Assembly: GCA_026387335.1 (NCBI GenBank)
Contig: JAPLLX010000002.1
Coordinates: forward strand, 77,326 to 141,325
From: Candidatus Omnitrophota bacterium
Lineage (GTDB): Bacteria > Omnitrophota > Gorgyraeia > Gygaellales > Profunditerraquicolaceae
Length of the DNA: 64,000 nt
Reading direction: 5' to 3'
In this document: piece by piece, positions 3,566 through 46,838 of the stretch
Layout of the letters: each line of letters starts with the position of its first letter
How positions within the stretch are numbered: position 1 is the first letter of the stretch
Made by a program: the position numbers and the translations under genes
Notes under the pieces: model-generated
The model's input: only the letters and a program-made list of their open reading frames with translations
Told to the model about the DNA's origin: nothing
Database searches by the model: none

Positions 3566-4673
3566 ATGTTAGATGAGATAAAAACCAAACTTAGCCTTAT
3601 CCAGATCAGCCTGGAGCAACTAAGAGGTTATCTTTGACATTGATAACAAAAAGAAGCTTATAGCGGATTTATCGGCGAAGATGTCCGAGCCCGGATTTTG
3701 GGATGCCGGCGAGAATTCTACGAAAATAGTCCGGCAGCTCAAAATCCTTAAAAATACGGTTGAACCGTGGGACTCCGCGGGTAAAAAATTTCAGGAGTTG
3801 CAAGAACTCACCCTTCTCCTTAAACCCCAGGATAGCGAATTCTTTTCAGATCTAAACAAGTCCGCGGATTCTCTTCTGAAGGAGTTGGGAGCGTTAGAAT
3901 TTAAGACTCTTCTATCCGGAGAACTTGACCCGAACAACGCGATTTTAAGCATCAACGCCGGAGCCGGCGGGACCGAGTCTTGCGATTGGGCAGAGATGCT
4001 TTTTAGGATGTATTCCCGTTTTTGCGAGAAGAGAGGCTGGAAGGTCAAGGCTATAGATGTGCTTTATGGAGAAGAAGCCGGCATAAAGAATGTCACGGTT
4101 TTAGTTGAAGGGGATTATGCTTACGGTTATCTTAAGGAAGAGCGCGGAGTGCATAGGTTAGTGCGTATATCGCCTTTTGACGCTAATAAGCGCAGGCATA
4201 CATCTTTCGCTTCGGTAGATGTGATCCCTGAAGTCCTGGAGGATATAGACGTAAAACTGGAAGAAAAAGACTTAAGGATCGATGTTTACCGTTCCAAGGG
4301 CGCGGGAGGCCAAAGCGTAAATACTACGGATTCCGCGGTGAGGATCACGCACCTACCCAGCGGAATAGTCGCGCAATGCCAGAACGAACGCTCGCAGCAT
4401 CAGAATAAACAGACAGCGTTAAAGATCTTAAAGGCGCGCATATATGATATGGAAAGGCTTGCTCGGGAAGCAGAGATGCTCAAAAATTACGCCGGAGGGA
4501 AAAAGAAGATAGAATTCGGAAGCCAGATCCGCTCTTATGTTATGCACCCCTACAGTATGGTTAAGGACCACCGCACAGATCATGAGACCGGGGATGTTTC
4601 TAGCGTCATGGATGGGGCCCTGGATGAATTTATTGAAGCGAATTTAAAGTTGCAAAAAGGAAGAAAAAAATAA
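3566..4673 (+). CDS. prfB: peptide chain release factor 2, expressed through a programmed +1 frameshift (3566..3634 joined to 3636..4673)
   Basis: A short frame, ATG 3566 through CTT 3632-3634, runs into in-frame TGA 3635-3637. The +1 frame starting at GAC 3636 is the same frame as tracked ORF 3681..4673. RF2 motifs SPF (ISPFDA) and GGQ (GAGGQSVN) are present. Confidence 0.9.
3623..3638 (+). promoter_or_regulatory. prfB autoregulatory +1 frameshift site (SD-like GAGG, then CTT TGA C)
   Basis: The sequence AGAGGTTATCTTTGAC matches the canonical CUU UGA C slippery/stop context with an upstream SD-like element. Confidence 0.85.
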
Positions 4674-7600
4674 TGTTAAGGTATATTAAAAAATTGGCTT
4701 TAAGCAGCAAGCAGAAACAGATCAATCGCCTGGCTCCCGGAGTGAAGATATTTTTACATCCGGATATGCCGCAGCCATCAATGCATAAAATGGCCCAGAT
4801 AAGCTCTATAGTGTATGCGGTTAACGCGCTGGAAGCAAAAGTCAGCGGTTTGACCGATGAGCAGTTAAGGGCCAAGACACCGGAATTTAAGGAACATATC
4901 CAGCGGGAGGCGAAAGTCTATGAGCAGGAATTACTGGAGTTGGAAGAGGCGATGCTCTCCGTGGCTATTCCGGAAGAAAAAGAGAAATTAAAGGAAAAGC
5001 TTAAATTTACGCGCAATAATGTTTTTAAAGATATCCTCCCCGAAGCGTTCGCGATAGTCAGGGAGGCGGCCAAAAGGACAATAGGCCTGCGGCATTTTGA
5101 TTCCCAGCTCGCCGGAGGCGTAATCTTACACGAAGGCCGGATCGCGGAGATGTCTACCGGTGAAGGAAAAACTCTGGTGGCGACCCTTCCGGCGTATCTG
5201 AACGCCCTTCTGGGTAGAGGAGTGCATATAGTCACGGTAAACGATTATCTGGCCCGCCGCGACTCAGAGTGGATGGGGCCGGTCTATGAATTTTTAGGGT
5301 TAAGTGTGGGGGTCATCCAGCATGAGATGTCCGACGAGCAAAGGAAGCTGGCTTATTCCTGCGATATCACCTACGGGACAAACAATGAATTTGGCTTTGA
5401 TTACCTGCGCGACAACATGAAGTATTCACTGGAAGATCTTGTGCAGAGGCCTTTTTACTACGCCATAGTTGACGAAGTAGATTCAATATTGGTGGACGAG
5501 GCGCGCACCCCGTTGATTATCAGCGGAGCGGCTGAGGAGTCTACGGGAAAATATTTTACCGCTAAAAATATCGCCGACCAGCTAAAGGGCAGGCGGGTTA
5601 CCGAGAGGGACGAGATAGACGCTAAATACAAGGGCCTGGATTTAGGCAAGGGCTTTGATTATGTGGCGGATGAAAAAGCCCAGACCATAGCCTTGACTGA
5701 TGACGGTGAAACAAGGGCAGCCCAGCTTTGGGGGGTAGAGAGCCTGCATAATATTGAAACTATAGAATGCCGGCATCATACTATCGCCGCCCTAAGGGCC
5801 AAAGAATTTTATGAGCGCGATGTAGATTATGTAATTAAGGATGGCGAAGTCATTATTGTTGATGAATTCACCGGCCGCATGATGCCGGGGAGGCGCTGGT
5901 CAGACGGCTTACATCAGGCAGTGGAAGCCAAGGAAGGGATGAAGATAGAACGCGAGAACCAGACGTTAGCCACGGTTACCTTTCAGAATTATTTCCGGAT
6001 GTATGAAAAGCTAGCCGGAATGACCGGGACCGCTTTTACTGAAGCCAATGAGTTTAAGAATATATACCAGCTGGATGTTATAGTCATCCCGACAAATAAG
6101 CCGCTAATCCGGGCAAATTACCCTGACCGTATTTATAAAACAGAAAAAGAAAAATTTGCAGCGGTAGTTGAAGAAATCGTCGAACTTTATAATTCAGGCA
6201 GGCCGGTTTTGGTAGGCACCATCTCAATTGATAAGTCTGAGCGGCTCGCGCAGATGCTTAAACTGCGCGGGATAACCCATCAGGTGCTTAACGCCAAATA
6301 TCATGAGTTGGAAGCGCAGATTGTCGCCCAGGCCGGAAGGTTTAAGGGTGTTACTATCGCCACCAATATGGCCGGCCGGGGGACAGATATTTTATTAGGC
6401 GGTAACCCGGAATTTATGGCTAAAAATGTAGCCAAACAAAAACTTAATACTGAAGATCCTGCTTATCAGGAAGAGTATAAAAAAATATTGGATAAATATA
6501 AGCAGGAGACTGAGACTGAGCATAATAAAGTAGTGGAATTAGGCGGCCTGCATGTTTTAGGGACTGAACGGCATGAAGCGCGCAGGATTGATAATCAGTT
6601 GCGCGGCCGCTGCGGCCGTCAGGGAGACCCTGGTTCATCCAGATTTTATGTTTCTTTAGGGGATGACCTGATGCGGCTTTTTGGTTCTGACCGGCTTATC
6701 GGCATTATGGATAAGCTGGGGTTAGAAGAAGGCCAGGTCATTGAGCATCCCTGGGTCAGCCGCTCCATTGAAATTGCCCAGAGGCGGGTTGAGCAGCATA
6801 ACTTTGAAATAAGAAAGCAGCTTTTGGAATATGATAATGTAATGAATAAGCAGAGAGAGATAATTTACGGCCAGCGCCACCAGATCCTGCAGGGGATTTC
6901 TTTAAGAGAGAGAGTGTTGGAGATCGCCGAAGCCGTTGTGGATAATCTTATGAGTATCTATTTTCCGGATAATTCTTCCGGAGCTGATCCGGACTTGGAA
7001 GGTTTTGTGACCGCGCTAAATTCTAAATTCGCTTTAGTGCCCGCCGCGGAAATGCTGAATAATAATTCTAAAAACGGCCTTAGGCAAGAATTATTTAATC
7101 AGGTAATCAGCCTTTATGAAAATAAAGAAAAGGCAATCGGCTTAGATTTAATGCGGCATTTAGAGCGTATGGTATTCTTGCAGATCATTGACGCCAAATG
7201 GAAGGATCATTTATACGCTATGGATAGCCTGCGCGAAGGCATAGGGTTACGCGCTTATGGCCAACGCGATCCGTTAGTGGAGTATAAACGCGAGGCATTT
7301 GGTATGTTTAGTCAAATGGTCGCTTCCATTGAAGAGGAGTCAGTAGAGGCTATTTTCAAACTGCAACCGTCCCAGCCGCAGAGTTTTAGAGGGGCATTTA
7401 GTTCCGTGCATCAGGAGCTTTCGCATCCTGAGATTACCGGACTACAAGGCCCCCAAGAAGGAGACAGCGGCGAAGATTTTGCAGCCGCTGAAGAAGGGCC
7501 ATCCCAAAAAACAGTAAAATTATCCCACCCTAAAGTCGGACGCAATGAGCCTTGCCCTTGCGGTTCCGGCAAAAAATATAAAAAATGTTGCGGCAAATAA
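4673..7600 (+). CDS. secA: preprotein translocase ATPase SecA
   Basis: 975 aa. DEAD-like motor motifs (MSTGEGKTLV, VDEVDSILVDEARTPLIISG, TNMAGRGTDI) and a C-terminal zinc motif CPCGSGKKYKKCCG. Start overlaps the prfB stop (TAATG). Confidence 0.95.
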   Translation: MLRYIKKLALSSKQKQINRLAPGVKIFLHPDMPQPSMHKMAQISSIVYAVNALEAKVSGLTDEQLRAKTPEFKEHIQREAKVYEQELLELEEAMLSVAIPEEKEKLKEKLKFTRNNVFKDILPEAFAIVREAAKRTIGLRHFDSQLAGGVILHEGRIAEMSTGEGKTLVATLPAYLNALLGRGVHIVTVNDYLARRDSEWMGPVYEFLGLSVGVIQHEMSDEQRKLAYSCDITYGTNNEFGFDYLRDNMKYSLEDLVQRPFYYAIVDEVDSILVDEARTPLIISGAAEESTGKYFTAKNIADQLKGRRVTERDEIDAKYKGLDLGKGFDYVADEKAQTIALTDDGETRAAQLWGVESLHNIETIECRHHTIAALRAKEFYERDVDYVIKDGEVIIVDEFTGRMMPGRRWSDGLHQAVEAKEGMKIERENQTLATVTFQNYFRMYEKLAGMTGTAFTEANEFKNIYQLDVIVIPTNKPLIRANYPDRIYKTEKEKFAAVVEEIVELYNSGRPVLVGTISIDKSERLAQMLKLRGITHQVLNAKYHELEAQIVAQAGRFKGVTIATNMAGRGTDILLGGNPEFMAKNVAKQKLNTEDPAYQEEYKKILDKYKQETETEHNKVVELGGLHVLGTERHEARRIDNQLRGRCGRQGDPGSSRFYVSLGDDLMRLFGSDRLIGIMDKLGLEEGQVIEHPWVSRSIEIAQRRVEQHNFEIRKQLLEYDNVMNKQREIIYGQRHQILQGISLRERVLEIAEAVVDNLMSIYFPDNSSGADPDLEGFVTALNSKFALVPAAEMLNNNSKNGLRQELFNQVISLYENKEKAIGLDLMRHLERMVFLQIIDAKWKDHLYAMDSLREGIGLRAYGQRDPLVEYKREAFGMFSQMVASIEEESVEAIFKLQPSQPQSFRGAFSSVHQELSHPEITGLQGPQEGDSGEDFAAAEEGPSQKTVKLSHPKVGRNEPCPCGSGKKYKKCCGK

Positions 7601-37563: not shown

Positions 37564-39357
37564 ATGCATAAGATAAAGTGGCACGGCTTATTTTTTGCAA
37601 TAATTCTAGCGGGTACTTTTTCTTTTGCCTTGGCGCAGGATGATACCTCGACAGACTTAGATAGAATAGTTGTTTCTAAGAGCAGAAACTTGTTTTCAGG
37701 CGGGTATTCTTTAAGTGCTGCCGACCTAGAAGCCCTTCCGGCAAGCTCAATTATTGAAGCAGTAGGTTCATTACCTTTAGATTTACAGAGCCGCTCACCG
37801 CACTCAGGGATCCAAGCAGATTTTTCTTTACGCGGGTCAAGTTTTCAGGATGTGCTTCTTCTTCTTAACGGCCGGCGGATTAACGATCCCCAGACAGCCC
37901 ATTTTAATTCCGATATTCCCTTTACCCGCGCGGATATCTCCAAGGCCCAGGTTTTGCCTTCAGCTTCTTCATCGCTTTTTGGCCCGGACGCGATAGGAGG
38001 GGCGGTTAATTTCATTATTAAAAGGCCGCAAGAGAAAAAATACGTTTTAGAATTATCCGGGGGCCAGCATAACACTTTTTCAGGGCTTTTTAGCGCCAGC
38101 GATAAGATTAAAGACTTGGGGTTAAGGCTATCCATAGAGAGAGCGCAGTCATCCGGGTTCCATGAGGACACAGATTATAAAAAATTTACCACAAGTATCG
38201 CTTCTTCTCTAGCCTTGCCGTTGGGCTCCTTTGATTTTAATATGGGGTATCAGCAAAAGGAATTCGGAGCGTTTGATTTTTATACCCCCGGAAAAAATAA
38301 TCCTTCCAAGGAGTGGACAAGGACGTATCTTTTAGATACCGGATTCAATTTAGATAAGGATGGTTTGGTGATTAAGCCGAATTTTATCTGGCGCAGGCAT
38401 TTTGATAAATTCCAGCTGGATAAAACAGGGGTGAAAAGTAATTTTGTCAGTAATCACCGTAACGACACATATACACCGAGTATTTATTTTCAAAAGGAAT
38501 TTTTAAGCCTGGGCAAACTCGGTTTTGGCCTGGAATATGGAGATGAACGTATTACCTCCACTACTTTAGGCAGGCACAATAGGGAGCACAAAAGCCTATT
38601 TATTGATGACGCGCTAGATTTAACTCCAGCGCTTTCTTCAGGCTTATCTTTTCGCCTGGATGATTTTGACAGTTTTAATACAGCTTATACCGGCTCCTTA
38701 ACCTTGCGCTACGAAATCCTTAGCCAAAACTTTTTGCATTTTGCGGTTTCCCGGAATATTCGCGTGCCTTCTTTTACCGAGCTTTATTATAGCGATGACG
38801 GTTATACTATAGGTAACTCTAATCTTTCAGCCGAGAAGTCCCTGAATTACGAAATCGGTTACGAAATCAAAAAAGAGAGATTTTCCTTTAGCCCGACACT
38901 ATTCTTCCGCAGGGAGGATGATTTTATTGACTGGGTAATGGCTGGTTCAAGATGGCAGGCTAAAAACATTTCCGGCGCGGATGTGCTTGGGATAGAAACT
39001 CGATTCGGATGGGAAATAAATAAAATTGCTAGCGTAAATACCAATTATACCTATATTAATAAATTCACGAATAATGAGTACCTTTTTAAATACGGGCCCA
39101 ACTATGCCCGGCACCTGTGGAATACCGAATTTGTCTTCCAGCTTCCTTTCGGCGCTCAAAGTATAGGTTTTACCTATAAAAAGAAACCCGGTCGAGACGG
39201 CTGGTTTCTGCTTAACGCCCGCGCAAACTTCAATTTAAATAAAAATACCTCTTTATTTATTACGGGGACAAACCTGCTTAATACCGGTTATCAGGAGATA
39301 GAGGGGATACCTCAGCCCGGAAGGTGGGTAGATTCCGGATTTAGGCTTGAATGGTAA
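37564..39357 (+). CDS. TonB-dependent outer-membrane receptor
   Basis: 597 aa with a signal peptide, plug-domain motifs (DRIVVS, LLLNGRRINDP, FGPDAIGGAVNFI) and a C-terminal beta-barrel ending in an aromatic residue (GFRLEW). Confidence 0.8.
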   Translation: MHKIKWHGLFFAIILAGTFSFALAQDDTSTDLDRIVVSKSRNLFSGGYSLSAADLEALPASSIIEAVGSLPLDLQSRSPHSGIQADFSLRGSSFQDVLLLLNGRRINDPQTAHFNSDIPFTRADISKAQVLPSASSSLFGPDAIGGAVNFIIKRPQEKKYVLELSGGQHNTFSGLFSASDKIKDLGLRLSIERAQSSGFHEDTDYKKFTTSIASSLALPLGSFDFNMGYQQKEFGAFDFYTPGKNNPSKEWTRTYLLDTGFNLDKDGLVIKPNFIWRRHFDKFQLDKTGVKSNFVSNHRNDTYTPSIYFQKEFLSLGKLGFGLEYGDERITSTTLGRHNREHKSLFIDDALDLTPALSSGLSFRLDDFDSFNTAYTGSLTLRYEILSQNFLHFAVSRNIRVPSFTELYYSDDGYTIGNSNLSAEKSLNYEIGYEIKKERFSFSPTLFFRREDDFIDWVMAGSRWQAKNISGADVLGIETRFGWEINKIASVNTNYTYINKFTNNEYLFKYGPNYARHLWNTEFVFQLPFGAQSIGFTYKKKPGRDGWFLLNARANFNLNKNTSLFITGTNLLNTGYQEIEGIPQPGRWVDSGFRLEW

Positions 39358-39372
39358 AAGATTATTGCTATA

Positions 39373-39672
39373 ATGTTATCTATGTTTATTCATGTTGTTT
39401 TATTCCAGGTTAAGCCTAAAGAAGTGGCCAAATACCGCAAGGATAGCCTGATGTGGGCCAGTTATACTAAGAAAGCTAAAGGATTTGTGGCGTATTTTAC
39501 TATGAAGCGTTACGGTCGCCTTAATCAATACGCTTCAGTGTATGAATGGGATAGAAAAGTTGATCACAACCGCTTTATGAAGAAATACCACGATTGGTTG
39601 GTAAGCAAATCCAAAGCCAAGGTAAAAGTGCTGGGTTATTATAACCTTAAAGGCATAGATAGGCTAAGGTAA
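39373..39672 (+). CDS. small ABM/Dabb-like ferredoxin-fold protein (candidate)
   Basis: 99 aa. Only the pattern of an antibiotic-biosynthesis-monooxygenase-like fold. Its position after a TonB receptor is reminiscent of IsdG-type proteins, but this is weak. Confidence 0.3.
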   Translation: MLSMFIHVVLFQVKPKEVAKYRKDSLMWASYTKKAKGFVAYFTMKRYGRLNQYASVYEWDRKVDHNRFMKKYHDWLVSKSKAKVKVLGYYNLKGIDRLR

Positions 39673-39688
39673 AAATACCTAAAAAAAC

Positions 39689-39716
39689 TTGAAATTCGCC
39701 TATTTTATGGTATACT
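39689..39716 (+). promoter_or_regulatory. promoter of the giant ORF (TTGAAA-N16-TATACT with TGn extended -10)
   Basis: TTGAAA at 39689-39694 and TGGTATACT at 39708-39716. Confidence 0.55.
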
Positions 39717-39781
39717 TTCTTAAGTTTTAGGTAGTTAGGATTAGCGTTCCCGCTGGAGGGCGGAAACGCGGAGAAGTCTAT

Positions 39782-39829
39782 AAACCAGAATGCCACGAAC
39801 AAGGGTCGGCTTTCTGGTTTTTTATTTTC
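39782..39829 (+). terminator. intrinsic terminator inside the 5' leader of the giant ORF (attenuator or riboswitch expression platform)
   Basis: AAACCAGAAtGCC-N13-GGCtTTCTGGTTT stem followed by TTTTTTATTTT. It ends 36 nt before ATG 39866. Confidence 0.65.
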
Positions 39830-39865
39830 CGGTATTATTAAAGAGATTAAAAAAGGAGTTAGGGA

Positions 39866-42800
39866 ATGAAAGTCAAATTAAGAAAAATCCTATCTTTAGC
39901 TTTAACCATTAGTTTACTTTTTCAGCAAATAGGTTTTGCCCAGATAGCTACCGAACTTAACCTGGTCAATCACTTCGCCAGGATGGCTAGCAGTCTCACA
40001 GTAGAGAAATTTCGGCCCCTGCACCTGCGTTATTTCTCTTACGACAACTTAAATGACAATTTCAAGGTATTGGTGGATAAAGGTGACTTCGAGAAGGGAC
40101 TGTCCCCGAAGGGGGCTGTCCCTGAAGAGAAACTTAAAGAAGAAACCAAAACCCTCCTTAGCTACTTCCTTGTAGGAGTTACTCTTCCAGATAGTATGTT
40201 CTGGGTTAACCTGCGCCCTGATTCCGAAGACCAGATAATAGACCAGTATCTGGAGAAGACAGATATAGGTAAGATAATGCTGGAAGCAGATCTCCAGCTA
40301 AAGAAAGACACCGCGCTAATGACTTCTCCGGCTACCCCTGAAGGTAGGGAATACTGGGATAGGCTCTATAAGAAGGCAGCCGAGCTTTATGGCTATGATA
40401 ATGTTAGCATACCTACCTTAACCCGGCCCTGGATAGTCCCCGGAGAAATAATTGTCCGGGAATCTCAAGACTCAGCCTATGTTTATAAAGCTAATCTTAA
40501 GGTAATGCTGGAGCAGGATTACTTAAAAGATTCTAGTAACTATAACTTTAAAGACAGCCGCTCCAAAGCCCTGAATGAATACTCATCCGAACTAATAAGG
40601 GAATTAATTATCCCTAAGCTCACTAAAGAAGTAAACTCCAGCAAAAGATACGCTCCTTTACGCCAGGTATATTACTCTTTAATCCTGGCCCGCTGGTTTA
40701 AACTGCGCTTTAGCGGCAAAACCGGCACCTATGCTTCGCTCATTAACACTAGGAATTTAACTAACTTAATATCTAAAGACTCCTGGTCCAAGACCGATTA
40801 TTTTAAACAATACCAAAAATCCTTCTCTGAAGGCGAATACAATATCCAAGAACCAGTGCGTACCCCTACAGGCCAGGTAATCAGGAGTTACTTTAGCGGC
40901 GGGATAGATGTAGCTAGTAGCGCTATTAATACTCAGAATGGCGTTAGTAATCTTAAAGCGGCGTTGCCCCTTTCTTTGTTTTCTCGAACCGGAGTCATAA
41001 TAGGAGGAAATGCCGCAAGGCCTTTTAGCGTAAATCTGCAGCCCGTTGTTGCCGCTTCAGTCGGCGCCGCCTCGCCGGTTAAAACCTCTAGCCCGATATT
41101 TACTCTTGATGATAGAAATGGGGTAGTCTTTTCTGTTTATCCCAGAACAGAAATAAGAGAGGATCAACTAAGAGAGGCGGCGGAGGTTTTGAAAAACCGG
41201 ATTTTTAACTATCCAAAAAATGGCAAGATTATTGATATTCAGCTAGTCCCTGGCTCTAAGCGGCAGATAGCTTATCCTACGCGCTGGAAAATAGTTATAG
41301 AGCATAAGCCTGATTTAGAAGAAACTCTGGTTACATTAGTAAATGATCAGGGCAAAGTTATTATTAATATAGGCTATTCTATCGATAGTAAAGCGCTCGA
41401 TTTACCAGAAAAACTTCTTAACGAACACCTGCAGATGGCATTGATTAGCGCCGCATCCAGAATAAGGTTTAATTCACTGGCCGCCGCCTCGCCGGTTAGT
41501 TCATTAGAAAATCAAGCATATCTTCTTGCTTTAACCTTGGGCATAAAAGATTCAGAAAGGAAGTATGTCGCGGTGGTATTTATGATGCCTTTGATAAAAG
41601 CCTTTATGGATAATAGTAATCCTCCTCCGACTTCAAGCCAGGCCAAAGAATTCTATCAGAGAATAATAAATAATACAGACAAGACAGTTTCAGTTGAAGT
41701 TTTAGCCCGGTCGTTTGCTTTCCTTTCAAATCCGAACGCTAGCTTGTCGGAAAAAGAAAAATTCAACAGCTCGCCGGTGACTTCAAATTTAGCTAAGGCA
41801 GTTGAGGAAGCGCAAAGCCAGTTGCCGGCAGATGTAAATGAACAGATTTTAAAGTTTATTGTTACCGGCGATGAAAATGGAAGAATACTTTATCCTATTT
41901 GGCCGCAAGATTCTGTTATGGTCGGACATGTCAGAGATGACCGGGCTGGATATTTTGCCAGAGGCCTGCAGAATAGAGGCTTTAAAAATTTATTAGGATA
42001 TATTAAATTTACCAATGATTTCCAAGGTAAAGCTGTTTTGTCCGAAGAAACTATCGCTAGTGTTCCAAATACTTTTTTTGAGAGAATATCCAACAAGGGG
42101 TATCAAGTGTTGGTGATTTCTGAAGATGAGAAGAAAAGCCATACGGGTAAAAACGCTGCCGGTAGGAAAAAGGACGGGCTTTTCCCCGGGCAAAAACAGA
42201 TTGTAATACCTATGCAGAAATCTGAAATGGCCTATGTAGATACTCCCCAGATGAAAATGAAAGAATGCGCTGACGAGGTATTAAATGGACTGGATGACGA
42301 TGCTACAGATTTTATTTTAGTTAATCTGCTAAGTTCAGATATGATGAAACACACCGGTAACTTCCAAGCGGCAAAAAAAAGTAATGAAATAACCGACCAG
42401 CAGATCGGAAGAATAAAAGAAAAGGTTGATAGAATAAAAAGCCATATTCTGGGTGATATGATGAAAGAAGTCAATAAATACTTATCTAGAGAAGAGGCCA
42501 GTCAGCTTTATGTTTTACTATTGAATAATTATGCTGAATTTTTAGCAAGGCTGAAGAATAAAAACCAGGAGCTCTATAAACGGATAAAAGATTTAGAAGC
42601 CAAAATTCCCATCTTTGTTATTACTGCTGACCATGGCGCTTCTGAGGCAGGTCTCACTGATAATCCGAAGGAATCCGACACTTTCCATACAGCCAATCCA
42701 GTGCCGTATATTATTTATGATCCCCTAAGAACTCAAAAATTAGCTTTAAAGTCCGGACAGACCATCAGGAATAACGGGGCTACATTATTACACCTATTAG

Positions 42801-45800
42801 GCGAAGAGATCCCCCAAGGGTCTGATCCCAGCTTGCTGCCTGATGATTATCAAGGAAGTAAGCGTAGGATCACGATGGCTGTTTTGGATGGCTGGGGTAT
42901 AAACCCTGATCAGAATTATCCCTGGGATGCTATCCGGCTGGCCAATACACCTAATTATGACTGGATGGTTGAGAATGCGTCTTTCACTCAGGTCCAAGCG
43001 CACGGTGAAGTGATCGGATTAAGAGGCCCATTATCTTTGGAAGAAGGTAGACACCATTTAAGAGGCCTGCAAGCAGGCCAGACTGACGTTGGCCACCTGC
43101 ATTTGTTCTCACTGAGAGAGATTAAACAACCTTTATGGTATGTAGACAGGCTTATCAAAGGCAGTATACGCGATGGCGTTTTTGATGAAAGCAAACCCGA
43201 AGTCCAGGTATTGGTAAAAGAATTACAAAGGGTTAAGGATAATAATTTGAGATTTCATTATATAACCATCGCTTCTGAGGGTGGAGTGCATTCTTCGCTC
43301 TATCATATGTATGCCTTGATGAGATTAGCTAAGAAAATCGGCTTAAGGCAGGATCAATTTATTATCCATTTTGCCGCTGACGGTAGGGATGTGCCTACGC
43401 GCACCGCGCATCTATACATTCAGGATGTTGAAAAACGCATTGAAGAAATTGGAATAGGCGTAATTGCAACGGTATTTGGCAGGGATATGTTCGTACGTAA
43501 GGATGGCGCAGAAAATATCACTAATCGCATCATTGATGTAATGGAGGGTATTAATCTGGATGCGCAGGATGTCACGCAGGTAAAATCTGTCGCCAGCTCG
43601 GCGGTCACAGCAGTAGAATCTTTGAGAAATGATATTCTAACTAGGCTAAAAGAACGGATAAAAGATGATTCTGTTGTTAACCTGGTAAGGTCAAACTACT
43701 TATTTTATACGGCGAATACTCCTTCTAAATTAGCAAAGGCACTTGTTCAGATAGAAGAGAATCTGGATGGATTGATTATGTCTGCCACCGAAGAAAGATC
43801 GAGAGACCTGCAGACGCTCCAAGAATCAATAGAATCAGAACTGGCTAAACTTGTCTCCGTCGACTTGCCGGTGGAGACTATCAGTGAATTTGCAAAGATA
43901 GTTGAAAAACTGGCTGGTTATGGAGATGTAAGTTTTGATATATCGGGAACGGGAACTTTGAGAATACGCTATGCTGGTAATTTGTCTATGGTAGATAAGG
44001 TAGAAGCCGACAAGCTTCTGGTTAAGGCTAGAAAATTAATAGTAGAAGTTTCTTCTATAATAGGAAAAAAGATAAGCCAGTCATATGTGATGAAATTCCC
44101 GCAGGGGACTTTAGCTGCTAAGATAAGGGAAGATTTACTGCTTGAAAAAGCAAGGATATCAGAAAGTTTCGCCAGCTCGGAGGTTACTTATATAGACATA
44201 AATGAAGTAAGGCCGCCGGATAAGAGTTTTACTTTTCAACCCACAAATGGAGTGAGAATTTTTATTAATAATCGTGTCAATTGGTATACTCTGCAATTGG
44301 CTAGGTATGAGCCGGGAAAGAAGAATTATTTGATATTTAAGATTGGCAATCAACCTGTTCATTACGCTTACCTGAGCAGTAATCTTACAATTGGCCAACA
44401 GGATGTTGTTAGGACTATAATGAGAAAAATAGAGAATGGAACTCAGCTGTGGACAGAAATAGACTTAATCCAAGCGTTGGAAAAAGCATTATCTATGTCA
44501 CAATATAAGCCTAAAACTCAAGAATTACCGTCACCAATTATAATAGAACCTATTGTAGATAATAAAATTAAAGTGGAGTCGGGTGATTCAGAGCGCGCCA
44601 GCTCGCCGGTGCAGAAGGAAGAAAGATCGAACTATCTATTCTCTGGGTTACAGGAGGCAACCTTAGATGCAATTGGGGATATCCAGGGATTGGCAAGTTG
44701 GGCGCCTTTAATAGAAGAAGGCCCCAGCGGCGTAGAGCTAGGTATGGATATTATAATGAAGGAATACGGTTTAGATTCAGATAAGCCTATTCTTACGCAA
44801 CGATTAGCCGAACCAGGTAATTTTAAAGAGCTTTTGGAAAAAATCGATAAATTATATGAGTTTTTGGAAAAAAAATTAGAGAGCTTTTCTAAATTACTCG
44901 CTGATGTTAAAGAACAACAAAAGAAAATAATGACCCAGCATATAAGTAGTGTTAGCGACCAGGGTAAGGGTATAGAAAAAAGTTCCGTTTATTGGGGGAG
45001 TGAGTTTGTTTTAGAAGTTGCAATTAATAACATTGAAATAGCAATGCTTAAGTTAAGGCAAGCTGTTGAGAAAGTCAAAGGAGATATAGCTATTGTACCC
45101 AACTCATATATCGGGACTAAATTAAAGGAAGGCGCCAGCTCGGCGGTAACCAGAGAGAAAAAAGAGTCAGTTAACCTTTTAGGCGGAAGCACGCAAAAAA
45201 GAGTGCTTAGGGTTTATGAAGAGAAGGGCAGAGATTTAATAGCTACAGCCCTAGCTACAGGCCTTACTTTGGATATTGTATCTGAGTATGTTAAGGACGC
45301 CAAGCGTAATCCGGCCAGCTCGGCGGTGACGGAAAAAATTAAGGAAACGTTTCGCCAAGGAGGACTTTCCTTGAGTGAGTATACTATGGATTATATCGCG
45401 AAAAGGTTAAGCTCCATATTAAAGGATGGCGATGATATTGATAGAGATACTGCTGCTAAAATATTAATTAGCGTATATGATAATAATAAGCTTGCGGGTG
45501 GAACTCGAGCCCTCGGTCAAGTGTTTGCAACGCTTAATGATGCCAGGGAATTGCGGGAAATGGTAAAATACATCCGCGATCAGAAGGATAAATCTGTTGC
45601 CAGCTCGGCGGTGCATCATAAAATAATCAACCTCTACGATTTTGATTCTATCAAGGCGAAGAAAATAGATCCAAGTATTTTAAAAAATAGATTCATAGAG
45701 AAAATAGAAGAATTAATAGCAGATGTAAGGGAAGGTAAGAGAAGAGAATTTGCCGGTGAGTTGATACGATTAGCGAAAGCTGATGAGAACCTTTATACGA

Positions 45801-46357
45801 TTTGGTTTACCGATACAACATGGGTAGATATTAGACCTCAAGGGACAGAGATAGATATTAATTTTAGGTGTCGAGCTGGAATAGAGCAAAGCGTTGTGTG
45901 GGATGTTAGGCGTTTGATTAAGCTTTCCCAGTCAGAATTGTTAGTAGGAACCGTCGGCTCGGCGGTGCAGACTCCTGAGGAGACCGCAAGTTCAGCGTTG
46001 ACTCCCGGCGGTATTGATTTCCGCGCTCTACCGATGAGCATCCAGCCGATGGGAAGTTTTGCGGGCCTGAATTTTAAGCTGCCGCAGTTGACTCAAGCGC
46101 AGCTTAAGCAAATCAATATTGAATCAGAGATGCAACAGGTTAAGAATCTGGTAGAATCAGGGATTGTTCCTTCCGGAGACAGGATTAAAGAGCTTATCGC
46201 CGCTTGCAGCCAGAAGGGGAAGATTAGTTATTATGTAGATAATCTATTACTCTGCCTGGTAGATATATGTAAACTTGAAGAGCAGAATGCCTTTGAAACT
46301 TCCCCGGAGCTAAGAGAGGCGCTGGCGATTGTTGATTCGCTTGGCGGGCAGGTATAA
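39866..46357 (+). CDS. giant secreted mosaic protein (2163 aa) with embedded circularly permuted iPGM-like phosphatase domain; function unknown
   Basis: Uninterrupted 6.5-kb ORF with RBS AAAAGGAG and signal peptide MKVKLRKILSLALTISLLFQQIGFAQ. Has recurring ASS(A/P)V junctions, iPGM motifs (see findings), and a C-terminal PGGIDFRALP region. Confidence 0.9.
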   Translation: MKVKLRKILSLALTISLLFQQIGFAQIATELNLVNHFARMASSLTVEKFRPLHLRYFSYDNLNDNFKVLVDKGDFEKGLSPKGAVPEEKLKEETKTLLSYFLVGVTLPDSMFWVNLRPDSEDQIIDQYLEKTDIGKIMLEADLQLKKDTALMTSPATPEGREYWDRLYKKAAELYGYDNVSIPTLTRPWIVPGEIIVRESQDSAYVYKANLKVMLEQDYLKDSSNYNFKDSRSKALNEYSSELIRELIIPKLTKEVNSSKRYAPLRQVYYSLILARWFKLRFSGKTGTYASLINTRNLTNLISKDSWSKTDYFKQYQKSFSEGEYNIQEPVRTPTGQVIRSYFSGGIDVASSAINTQNGVSNLKAALPLSLFSRTGVIIGGNAARPFSVNLQPVVAASVGAASPVKTSSPIFTLDDRNGVVFSVYPRTEIREDQLREAAEVLKNRIFNYPKNGKIIDIQLVPGSKRQIAYPTRWKIVIEHKPDLEETLVTLVNDQGKVIINIGYSIDSKALDLPEKLLNEHLQMALISAASRIRFNSLAAASPVSSLENQAYLLALTLGIKDSERKYVAVVFMMPLIKAFMDNSNPPPTSSQAKEFYQRIINNTDKTVSVEVLARSFAFLSNPNASLSEKEKFNSSPVTSNLAKAVEEAQSQLPADVNEQILKFIVTGDENGRILYPIWPQDSVMVGHVRDDRAGYFARGLQNRGFKNLLGYIKFTNDFQGKAVLSEETIASVPNTFFERISNKGYQVLVISEDEKKSHTGKNAAGRKKDGLFPGQKQIVIPMQKSEMAYVDTPQMKMKECADEVLNGLDDDATDFILVNLLSSDMMKHTGNFQAAKKSNEITDQQIGRIKEKVDRIKSHILGDMMKEVNKYLSREEASQLYVLLLNNYAEFLARLKNKNQELYKRIKDLEAKIPIFVITADHGASEAGLTDNPKESDTFHTANPVPYIIYDPLRTQKLALKSGQTIRNNGATLLHLLGEEIPQGSDPSLLPDDYQGSKRRITMAVLDGWGINPDQNYPWDAIRLANTPNYDWMVENASFTQVQAHGEVIGLRGPLSLEEGRHHLRGLQAGQTDVGHLHLFSLREIKQPLWYVDRLIKGSIRDGVFDESKPEVQVLVKELQRVKDNNLRFHYITIASEGGVHSSLYHMYALMRLAKKIGLRQDQFIIHFAADGRDVPTRTAHLYIQDVEKRIEEIGIGVIATVFGRDMFVRKDGAENITNRIIDVMEGINLDAQDVTQVKSVASSAVTAVESLRNDILTRLKERIKDDSVVNLVRSNYLFYTANTPSKLAKALVQIEENLDGLIMSATEERSRDLQTLQESIESELAKLVSVDLPVETISEFAKIVEKLAGYGDVSFDISGTGTLRIRYAGNLSMVDKVEADKLLVKARKLIVEVSSIIGKKISQSYVMKFPQGTLAAKIREDLLLEKARISESFASSEVTYIDINEVRPPDKSFTFQPTNGVRIFINNRVNWYTLQLARYEPGKKNYLIFKIGNQPVHYAYLSSNLTIGQQDVVRTIMRKIENGTQLWTEIDLIQALEKALSMSQYKPKTQELPSPIIIEPIVDNKIKVESGDSERASSPVQKEERSNYLFSGLQEATLDAIGDIQGLASWAPLIEEGPSGVELGMDIIMKEYGLDSDKPILTQRLAEPGNFKELLEKIDKLYEFLEKKLESFSKLLADVKEQQKKIMTQHISSVSDQGKGIEKSSVYWGSEFVLEVAINNIEIAMLKLRQAVEKVKGDIAIVPNSYIGTKLKEGASSAVTREKKESVNLLGGSTQKRVLRVYEEKGRDLIATALATGLTLDIVSEYVKDAKRNPASSAVTEKIKETFRQGGLSLSEYTMDYIAKRLSSILKDGDDIDRDTAAKILISVYDNNKLAGGTRALGQVFATLNDARELREMVKYIRDQKDKSVASSAVHHKIINLYDFDSIKAKKIDPSILKNRFIEKIEELIADVREGKRREFAGELIRLAKADENLYTIWFTDTTWVDIRPQGTEIDINFRCRAGIEQSVVWDVRRLIKLSQSELLVGTVGSAVQTPEETASSALTPGGIDFRALPMSIQPMGSFAGLNFKLPQLTQAQLKQINIESEMQQVKNLVESGIVPSGDRIKELIAACSQKGKISYYVDNLLLCLVDICKLEEQNAFETSPELREALAIVDSLGGQV
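43592..45613 (+). repeat. dispersed in-frame 14-mer GCCAGCTCGGCGGT (4 exact copies, 2 one-mismatch copies)
   Basis: Exact copies start at 43592, 45134, 45314 and 45599. One-mismatch copies start at 44171 (GCCAGCTCGGAGGT) and 44597 (GCCAGCTCGCCGGT). Degenerate relatives start at 41066, 41480, 41768, 45956 and 45986. Confidence 0.9.
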
Positions 46358-46381
46358 AGCCGGTTTAGAGGCAAAATTTAG

Positions 46382-46409
46382 TTGACAATTGCATAATTTA
46401 GTGTATACT
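46382..46409 (+). promoter_or_regulatory. promoter of the cold-shock gene (TTGACA-N16-TATACT)
   Basis: TTGACA at 46382-46387 and TATACT at 46404-46409. It leaves a leader of about 115 nt containing hairpin AACCGTAAGG-N15-CCTTACGGTT (46444-46478) followed by a T run. Confidence 0.55.
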
Positions 46410-46532: not shown

Positions 46533-46733
46533 ATGGCAAAAGGTAAAGTAAAGTGGTTTTCCAACCAAAAAGGTTATGGGTTTATTACTCCTGAGAATGG
46601 TAATGATGTCTTCGTGCATCATACAGCTATACAGGGTGATGGCTATAAGACTTTAGAAGAGGGCCAGGAAGTGGAGTTTGAGATTGAAAAAGGTCCGAAG
46701 GGCGAGCAAGCTACAAAAGTAACCAAGTTATAA
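46533..46733 (+). CDS. cspA: cold-shock protein (CspA family)
   Basis: 66 aa with RNP1 KGYGFI and RNP2 VFVHH. Confidence 0.95.
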
Positions 46734-46759
46734 CCTAAAAAAGAAAAAAGAAAGCAAAT

Positions 46760-46816
46760 AAAGGGGACGGTTCTATTTTTTCAGGTTTAAGATTAAAAAA
46801 TAGAACCGTCCCCTTT
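46760..46816. terminator. long perfect hairpin, terminator-like (A-run 5' and T-run 3' of a GC core)
   Basis: AAAGGGGACGGTTCTATTTTTT-N13-AAAAAATAGAACCGTCCCCTTT forms a 22-bp perfect stem. Confidence 0.7.
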
Positions 46817-46838
46817 ATTCGTATGCTATAATTACCGT

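Follow-up and report, generated by a model that had tools for sequence, protein, structure and literature searches.

A large gene whose mutually unrelated protein modules are joined by one short, repeatedly used stretch of coding DNA was found in Candidatus Omnitrophota contig JAPLLX010000002.1 (assembly GCA_026387335.1). The gene occupies 39866..46357 (+ strand) of the window, the 64,000-nucleotide (nt) stretch of DNA that was analysed (contig positions 77,326 to 141,325) and to which all coordinates below refer. It starts with ATG and is an uninterrupted open reading frame (ORF) of 2163 amino acids (aa), encoding a head domain, nine cargo modules and a tail; its product is identical to protein NTW18_02340 of a Candidatus Omnitrophica bacterium metagenome-assembled genome at NCBI, annotated only as hypothetical. 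The junctions between modules read ASS(A/P)V or close to it. Their DNA is conserved beyond the baseline of the gene family, with its own variant per gene or genome, and homology breakpoints as well as a whole-module insertion or deletion fall at junctions. Each junction is probably a disordered seam between modules, with in-frame shuffling of modules taking place by crossover within its DNA.

Behind the head domain (39866..41065) stand junction 1 (AASPV, GCC GCC TCG CCG GTT; 41066..41080), module A (134 aa; 41081..41482) and junction 2, which repeats AASPV as GCC GCC TCG CCG GTT (41483..41497). Module B, an orphan of 90 aa (41498..41767), is followed by junction 3, (N)SSPV (AGC TCG CCG GTG; 41768..41779), and by module C (604 aa; 41780..43591), which resembles a circularly permuted phosphoglycerate mutase. 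Junction 4 (ASSAV, GCC AGC TCG GCG GTC; 43592..43606) leads into module D, an orphan of 188 aa (43607..44170), and junction 5 (ASSEV, GCC AGC TCG GAG GTT; 44171..44185) into module E (137 aa; 44186..44596). Next come junction 6 (ASSPV, GCC AGC TCG CCG GTG; 44597..44611), the 174-aa orphan module F (44612..45133), junction 7 (ASSAV, GCC AGC TCG GCG GTA; 45134..45148) and module G (55 aa; 45149..45313). The orphan module H (90 aa; 45329..45598) is enclosed by junctions 8 (45314..45328) and 9 (45599..45613), both ASSAV written GCC AGC TCG GCG GTG. Module I, 114 aa with a predicted alpha/beta fold (45614..45955), precedes the degenerate junction 10, (V)GSAV (GGC TCG GCG GTG; 45956..45967). Junction 11 (ASSAL, GCA AGT TCA GCG TTG; 45986..46000), with drifted codons, directly precedes the tail (46001..46354), as in most family members. 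All of these features are on the + strand. In an AlphaFold2 model of aa 1905-2163 the last three junctions (aa 1912, 2031 and 2041) lie between folded units and are predicted to be disordered, with a predicted local distance difference test score (pLDDT) below 50.

The repeated junction in this ORF had been noticed in a first-pass annotation made from the sequence alone, and that observation was confirmed: the ORF is uninterrupted, it carries the eleven in-frame copies described (copy 2 is AASPV at 41483, the start given as 41480 having included the preceding Ala), and the 14-mer GCCAGCTCGGCGGT occurs in four exact and two one-mismatch copies, all on the + strand, in frame and inside the ORF. 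The blocks between the copies, described as dissimilar, range from 55 to 604 aa and are indeed mutually unrelated, with no block-against-block BLASTP match below E = 0.45. The statement that all copies use the codon pair AGC-TCG holds for most of them and fails for ASSAL at 45986 and for the two AASPV copies, which are written GCC GCC TCG CCG. A twelfth copy had been overlooked. This is ASSAI inside the conserved N-terminal domain (GCT AGT AGC GCT ATT; 40913..40927, +), which serves as an internal control because it has the junction peptide with other codons; the peptide therefore does not force the codons seen at the junctions. Two simple origins were considered and rejected. A known tandem-repeat family is not present, since the blocks are unrelated (E ≥ 0.45) and Pfam matches only the two phosphoglycerate mutase domains, and recent tandem duplication is ruled out as the origin of the identical junctions because the blocks are unrelated to each other.

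The junction is strongly confined to the reading frame of one gene family. The 14-mer GCCAGCTCGGCGGT occurs nowhere else in the 64-kb window and was absent from 100 dinucleotide-preserving shuffles. A comparison of 78 related loci plus the window, in which family genes were delimited automatically and the regular expression lets through a few chance matches, found A[SG]S[AP][VIL] 134 times in 135,579 aa of family genes (0.99 per 1000 aa) and five times in 234,947 aa of other open frames of at least 200 aa at the same loci (0.021 per 1000 aa), a 46-fold difference. An unbiased k-mer count in the cargo regions of 119 homologues gave the same picture: ASSAV was observed 48 times where 0.36 were expected, and ASSAV, ASSPV and SSPV were among the most over-represented cargo words, only tail-domain words ranking higher. 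At the nucleotide level, family genes contain 31 in-frame copies of GCCRGYTCGSCGGT and none in other frames or on the opposite strand, and a single copy lies in 865 kb of flanking DNA; when up to three mismatches are allowed, nearly all matches again fall in frame 0. At these loci the pattern is thus neither spread over all frames nor present at the frequency expected from composition. The closest relatives of the window protein have many junctions, and some more distant members have few or none.

The codons of the junction are conserved across species far beyond what the genes' own codon usage predicts. Among the 78 loci, which come from other species, GCC encodes Ala at position 1 in 59 of 90 cases (23 expected) and TCG encodes Ser at position 3 in 70 of 126 (12.1 expected). 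At position 4, GCG accounts for 31 of 40 Ala codons (8.5 expected) and CCG for 50 of 86 Pro codons (25 expected), all expectations being calculated from the codon usage of the genes themselves. As a control, 82 head-domain columns were taken, in each of which one residue with four or six codons reaches at least 85% conservation. The Kullback-Leibler (KL) divergence from expected codon usage was 1.65 for junction TCG and 1.77 for GCG, against a median of 0.31 and a maximum of 1.21 in the control columns. Two head domains picked at random use the same codon for a fraction of 0.31 of their identical residues, which is near saturation. The junction codons thus do not vary freely between related genes, and the claim of the first-pass annotation that the junction shows more conservation than its peptide requires was borne out, the TCG and GCG bias exceeding all 82 control columns. 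The nucleotides on either side of the 14-nt junction are not conserved in the 78 loci.

This conservation bears directly on two of the alternatives. The first is coincidence, or the usual codon bias of a low-complexity peptide that is frequent anyway; in its favour, Ala and Ser are common residues. It has next to no chance of being right and is refuted by the absence of copies in 100 shuffles, by a probability of only 0.0026 per copy that ASSA is encoded as GCC AGC TCG GCG under the codon usage of the window, by the 46-fold enrichment and by the conservation of codons across species. A second alternative is translational: a rare and slow TCG-GCG or TCG-CCG pair between modules would pause the ribosome for folding or for hand-over to Sec. 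Among Ser codons TCG is the least used (9.2% in the window's other ORFs, 9.6% in family genes and nine of 150 in the window gene outside junctions), yet it dominates position 3, and the codon bias is common to several species. However, GCC and AGC are common codons here and are conserved too, and AGC and AGT are read by one tRNA yet are fixed differently between genes. A folding pause would also be expected 30 to 40 codons downstream of the end of a domain rather than at the end itself, and homology breakpoints would be left unexplained. A pausing signal is therefore improbable.

Synonymous variants of the junction are fixed per gene and differ between lineages. In the window gene ASSAV is written GCC AGC TCG GCG GTN four times, in locus L037 it is GCC AGT TCG GCG GTG four times, and in L010 AGSPV appears as GCC GGC TCG CCG GTG four times exactly and in two one-base variants. 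Two junctions have an identical 14-mer in 10% of pairs from the same gene, in 2.6% of pairs from different genes of the same genome and in 0.6% of pairs from different genomes. When the first four residues are the same, the 12 nt encoding them are identical in 34%, 19% and 7.8% of pairs, respectively. Variants that are held within a gene and change between lineages point to copying or homogenisation at the level of DNA, and not to a shared requirement for a peptide or a tRNA.

Modules have moved between family members, and their limits are the junctions. Modules A, C, E, G and I of the window gene recur elsewhere in other family members, bounded by the motif on both sides. The homologues of module A in P0006 and L002 are junction-bounded. 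Module E is 81.6% nucleotide-identical, from junction to junction, to a differently placed module in L014. Module G lies at aa 1762 in the window protein; in P0005, L002 and L014 it comes, flanked by junctions, immediately behind the head domain. Module I is 66% identical to aa 1303-1416 of P0005, where it likewise follows ASSAV.

Nucleotide identity steps up or down exactly at the 15-nt junction at four positions of the window gene. Against L016 it is 0.22 to the left and 0.83 to the right of the junction at 41768, and 0.70 to the left and 0.33 to the right of that at 43592, which together bracket module C. Against L014 the corresponding values are 0.30 and 0.77 at 44171 and 0.85 and 0.18 at 44597, on the two sides of module E. 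In an all-against-all comparison of cargo regions, 28.6% of the ends of cargo BLASTP alignments fell within 10 aa of a junction, compared with 6.7% for random positions.

A clean difference of one whole block was found between the orthologues L033 and L057, which belong to different species and share about 83% nucleotide identity in three collinear segments with reciprocal whole-module insertions and deletions. In L057 about 1.65 kb lies between ASSPL and VSSPL (gene nt ~4486-6200), and in L033 a single ASSPL (gene nt ~7057-7090) joins flanks that match those of the 1.65-kb block. This is the pattern that deletion between direct repeats, or insertion at them, would be predicted to leave.

Module shuffling by recombination had been among the explanations put forward in the first-pass annotation, and moved modules, identity steps, an insertion or deletion between two copies and codon homogenisation all support it. 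So do the place of the modelled junctions in disordered stretches between folded units and a high turnover of modules, seen in the low coverage by the nearest relative and the scarcity of matches to modules D to I. A gene of this kind would consist of a signal peptide and head, repeated units of junction plus module, and finally a junction and the tail. The seam would be five disordered residues, A-[S/G/A]-S-[A/P]-[V/I/L], and the DNA encoding it, GCC-RGY-TCG-SCG-GT, would be a short crossover point that preserves phase. Crossover between any two junction copies, whether in the same gene or in paralogues, would then join whole modules in frame, so that modules could be inserted, deleted or moved as cassettes, each event leaving a hybrid junction. 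Repeated exchange among paralogues would give mosaic architectures, junctions that are alike within a genome and the spread of junction-flanked modules. We infer that the 14-nt identity itself promotes crossovers, by microhomology-mediated or homology-facilitated illegitimate recombination, rather than merely surviving them, and that no dedicated enzyme is needed. In the protein, the junction might be no more than a hinge, or else a site for a protease or a modifying enzyme.

Several points weigh against a crossover seam. Fourteen nucleotides are fewer than RecA-dependent recombination usually needs, and thus the crossover mechanism would not be the ordinary one. Crossovers that occurred anywhere, followed by survival only of products that preserve domains, would leave the same breakpoints in linkers. 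Upkeep of a sequence "for evolvability" is a weak selective argument, and the model needs propagation by copying (molecular drive). Conserved head and tail positions also show codon conservation, with KL values up to 1.2, so part of the junction signal is family-wide inheritance. Some junctions keep the peptide with drifted codons (for example, GCT TCT TCA CCA TTA), and so the peptide itself is selected, for a reason that lies outside the crossover model. Finally, the loci include several paralogues per genome, hence the counts are not independent events.

The sharp limits of the 14 nt, without flanking homology, would also suit a dedicated site-specific system, integron- or shufflon-like, of which the junction is the core site and which excises or inserts in-frame domain cassettes. 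A separate variant in each lineage, as if site and enzyme co-evolve, and the clean difference between two copies would be expected of such a system. Its recombining site, however, would be shorter than known recombinase core sites and is not palindromic, and all copies are direct, with none inverted. There are no copies outside family ORFs and hence no silent donors in 865 kb of flanking DNA, nor is there a recombinase among the ten neighbouring ORFs scanned with Pfam. It is very improbable that a dedicated recombinase acts here.

A further possibility, likewise listed in the first-pass annotation as a cleavage or modification site, is that the junction is maintained for a function of the protein, ASS(A/P)V being a protease site in a secreted polyprotein or a modification site, such as a target for an O-glycosyltransferase acting on the serines, and that DNA conservation is a by-product of modules being copied with their linkers. 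The peptide is kept where codons have drifted, within the 14 nt the first and second codon positions of the S-[A/P] core vary least, the AlphaFold2 model shows exposed, disordered junctions, and a plain flexible linker would need no fixed sequence. The proposal also fits two preprints on giant proteins of Omnitrophota, which propose cleavage into smaller products and give the cleavage points as unknown (10.1101/2023.11.21.568195; 10.64898/2026.06.07.730766). In contrast, a need for the peptide alone leaves unexplained both the use of TCG and GCG above every control column and the synonymous variants, AGC or AGT, fixed in each gene. No protease or glycosyltransferase gene is present among the ten scanned neighbours, no His or Cys of the head domain is invariant among the aligned members, and its fold matched no peptidase. 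A protein-level function as the main explanation is possible, though rather doubtful; it is compatible with the crossover seam and does not exclude it.

Other roles proposed for the junction were examined and rejected. An RNA-level signal, also raised in the first-pass annotation, received no positive support, there being no conservation outside the 14 nt, no Rfam match and no out-of-frame copies. A larger RNA motif around the junction was rejected because conservation does not extend beyond the 14 nt. As an internal Shine-Dalgarno mimic the sequence fails, since only the ASSEV copy reads GGAGGT and the consensus is GGCGGT or GCCGGT. A palindrome or hairpin is formed by the AGSPV variant (CCGGC-TC-GCCGG) and not by the ASSAV form.

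Recombination at conserved linkers is a process known in kind. In mosaic phage tail-fibre and adhesin genes, the "glycine islands" of T-even gp37/gp38 are crossover motifs, and in lambdoid phages "boundary sequences" separate modules. As in these systems, a short seam conserved at the DNA level joins dissimilar modules, homology starts and stops there, and modules swap. In contrast to the phage mosaics, the junction described here is one fixed 14-nt, five-codon unit of which a single cellular gene contains up to about ten copies, hundreds of paralogues across a phylum have it, and the cargo consists of metabolic enzymes rather than receptor-binding domains. Eukaryotic exon shuffling between introns of the same phase likewise moves domains through frame-preserving joints between folding units; the present genes have no introns, and their joint is translated into a peptide that is conserved in its own right. 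The cassettes of pilE/pilS, vlsE and Mycoplasma vsa, and shufflons, share with the junction short conserved borders of recombining, variable coding cassettes. They differ in that no silent donors or inverted sites were found here, no recombinase is present among the ten scanned neighbours, and the modules are unrelated folds, including enzymes, instead of variants of one surface epitope.

A parallel in content lies in the same phylum. Giant proteins of Omnitrophota, called "Archaeovorins" and "multi-enzyme metabolic clusters", are 10,000 aa or more in length (10.1101/2023.11.21.568195; 10.64898/2026.06.07.730766). As described in these preprints, they are strings of cytoplasmic-type enzymes of sugar metabolism (phosphoglucomutase, pyruvate phosphate dikinase and others) that bear signal peptides and are proposed to be cleaved. 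In a look-up of terms, neither preprint referred to junctions, linkers or conserved N-terminal domains.

The first-pass annotation could not place the architecture in any family. A family does exist, with at least 956 proteins and 409 loci that share head and tail, and it is true that Pfam and NCBIfam have no model for either; within the window protein only the phosphoglycerate mutase parts were matched. The 956 relatives were recovered from 5.8 billion proteins and are nearly all labelled Omnitrophota or Omnitrophica. What they share is only the first 16 to 29% of the query, and even the nearest relative covers just 29%. When one genome per GTDB species was searched, 409 loci confirmed by tblastn encode the head domain, often several per genome. 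The common layout is a signal-peptide-like head, a variable cargo middle and a tail of about 112 aa. These matches place the window protein in a large paralog family that appears to be specific to Omnitrophota. A literature search on Omnitrophota proteins found no description of the head-cargo-tail family, the junction or the leader RNA described below, and we regard the family as new.

The N-terminal head domain is conserved to about aa 348, aa 349-400 being its variable tail. Over aa 1-348 the window protein is 59 to 80% identical to 12 other aligned members, with many invariant residues and the conserved motifs FWVNLRPD, TLTRPWIVP, RQVYYSLxLxRWFK and ..YFSGG. Its first 25 residues (39866..39940, +), read by eye, have the n/h/c layout of a Sec signal peptide, MKVKLRK / ILSLALTISLLF / QQIGFA|Q, with putative cleavage after GFA, and residues 2-29 are helical in the AlphaFold2 model. 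The protein has no hydrophobic segment beyond the N-terminus. Family proteins are putatively exported through this candidate Sec signal. Hundreds of paralogues carry the segment (ILSLxL..LLFQQxGFAQ) with almost no variation, a degree of conservation that signal peptides do not usually show.

At the other end, the tail matched 167 of 197 family sequences. It starts with GGIDF(R), which in the window protein lies at aa 2048, 116 aa from the end. An extended segment (GGIDFRALP..IQPMGSF..LPQL) is followed by a five-helix bundle, whose helical part was modelled with a pLDDT of 92 to 98 and which gave no significant Foldseek match in the PDB.

The cargo of the family, according to precomputed Pfam labels, includes phosphoglycerate kinase, enolase, triose-phosphate isomerase, GAPDH and phosphoglucomutase, together with pyruvate phosphate dikinase, transketolase, guanylate kinase, HD, radical SAM, TPR repeats and others. 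The near-invariant signal-like segment thus precedes enzymes that need ATP, NAD or sugar phosphates and are normally cytoplasmic.

Module C is the only cargo of the window gene that could be recognized. It aligns to both domains of the cofactor-independent phosphoglycerate mutase (iPGM) of PDB 1EJJ (E = 4e-44), in permuted order, with residues ~240-500 of the Geobacillus enzyme preceding residues 2-192. Its match to TIGR01307 is split into three stretches and scores 209.2 bits, below the cut-off of 330.65. The aligned segments retain LDG, DM..H, ADHG and HT.NP, which we take to be the Mn-ligand motifs of iPGM. At the position of the catalytic, phosphorylated Ser62 there is a Thr (QAGQTDVGH), and an insertion of 13 residues lies nearby. 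Module C thus resembles iPGM in matching both domains and keeping the motifs, and differs from it in being permuted, in the Thr at Ser62, in the insertion and in being embedded in a putatively exported multi-module protein. At least five other family members have the module in this permuted order, at 60 to 76% identity. On these alignments module C is a permuted iPGM-like domain and a putative enzyme.

The six modules that follow are almost without relatives. An exhaustive HMMER search with modules D to I (43607-45955; 803 aa) against 1.84 billion representative proteins returned two matches, and a sequence search of the PDB nothing below E = 0.16. A word-index protein search with aa 1243-2045 gave one weak match; it missed known relatives and is therefore uninformative. 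Modules D to I reflect either very fast evolution or recent origin. They look globular and show no low-complexity bias.

A bolder interpretation joins these parts. The junction would be a dedicated, translated 14-nt "domain splice site" through which modules are exchanged among dozens of paralogues per genome, possibly with catalysis; the pentapeptide may also be the cut site of multi-enzyme and giant proteins, and head, tail and leader would form a chassis that exports and co-regulates cytoplasmic-type cargo. This is speculative and, taken as a whole, unlikely. In more modest form the junction supplies a sequence-level rule for the limits of modules in the multi-enzyme proteins of Omnitrophota. 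Nearly all knowledge of this phylum comes from metagenomes, and published work gives the cleavage points or module boundaries of such proteins as unknown. It would also be an unusually clean case of bacterial domain shuffling, in which the crossover is visible at single-codon resolution and has a DNA signature distinct from ordinary linker conservation, and it could be tried as a natural design for in-frame modular protein assembly. The family itself is undescribed and has hundreds to thousands of members, with a head and a tail that had no fold match in the searches run. Signal peptides on glycolytic and other cytoplasmic-type enzymes raise the question of where these enzymes work in ultra-small, possibly predatory cells.

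The gene is preceded by a conserved leader RNA with two hairpins (39733..39825, +). A covariance model (R1) built from 13 loci scores 90.2 bits here and matches 30 to 31 of 79 sources. All 31 matches on the + strand lie directly upstream of a family gene, except that in L034, which precedes its family match by ~5 kb. The GGAGG loop of hairpin 1 is invariant, and so is a UGCCACG in hairpin 2; because a U-run comes after it, hairpin 2 resembles an intrinsic terminator. In an alignment fitted to the model, 96% of cells are paired and compensatory changes are seen in 19 of 21 pairs. Covariation scored 0.705, compared with 0.205 for shuffles and at most 0.138 for slid controls, and none of 500 shuffles reached the observed value. 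No Rfam 15 family matched at E ≤ 1 in 39300-46400, and none reached its gathering score in the whole window. This new, family-specific leader RNA is a candidate attenuator or riboswitch and can be tested as either. Upstream of it, a promoter-like site was found by consensus scan only (TTGAAA, a 16-nt spacer with TG, and TATACT; 39689..39716, +). The sequence also reads as a Shine-Dalgarno-like AAGGAG six nucleotides before the ATG (39854..39859, +).

The surroundings of the gene are mostly housekeeping. Pfam matched eight of the ten neighbouring ORFs scanned, including a cysteine-desulfurase-like aminotransferase, BirA, a TonB-dependent receptor, MnmA, NadA and BacA. Between the large gene and mnmA lies a small gene for a cold-shock protein of about 66 aa (MAKGKVKWF...; 46535-46733, +), with a promoter-like site before it (46382-46409). 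In its 5' untranslated region the Rfam model of the cspA thermoregulator reached 30 bits, a weak match below the 78 bits required. Further downstream, the sequence at 46755-46821 forms an almost perfect palindrome, its stem about 25 bp long (AAAGGGGACGGTTCTATTTTTT ... AAAAAATAGAACCGTCCCCTTT). The arm GGGACGGTTCT was found in ten of 78 Omnitrophota loci from other species (among them L007, L014, L031, L035, L039, L040, L052, L055 and L071), and in nine of the ten it forms inverted pairs. The palindrome looks like an intergenic element of the repetitive extragenic palindromic (REP) kind or a shared terminator.

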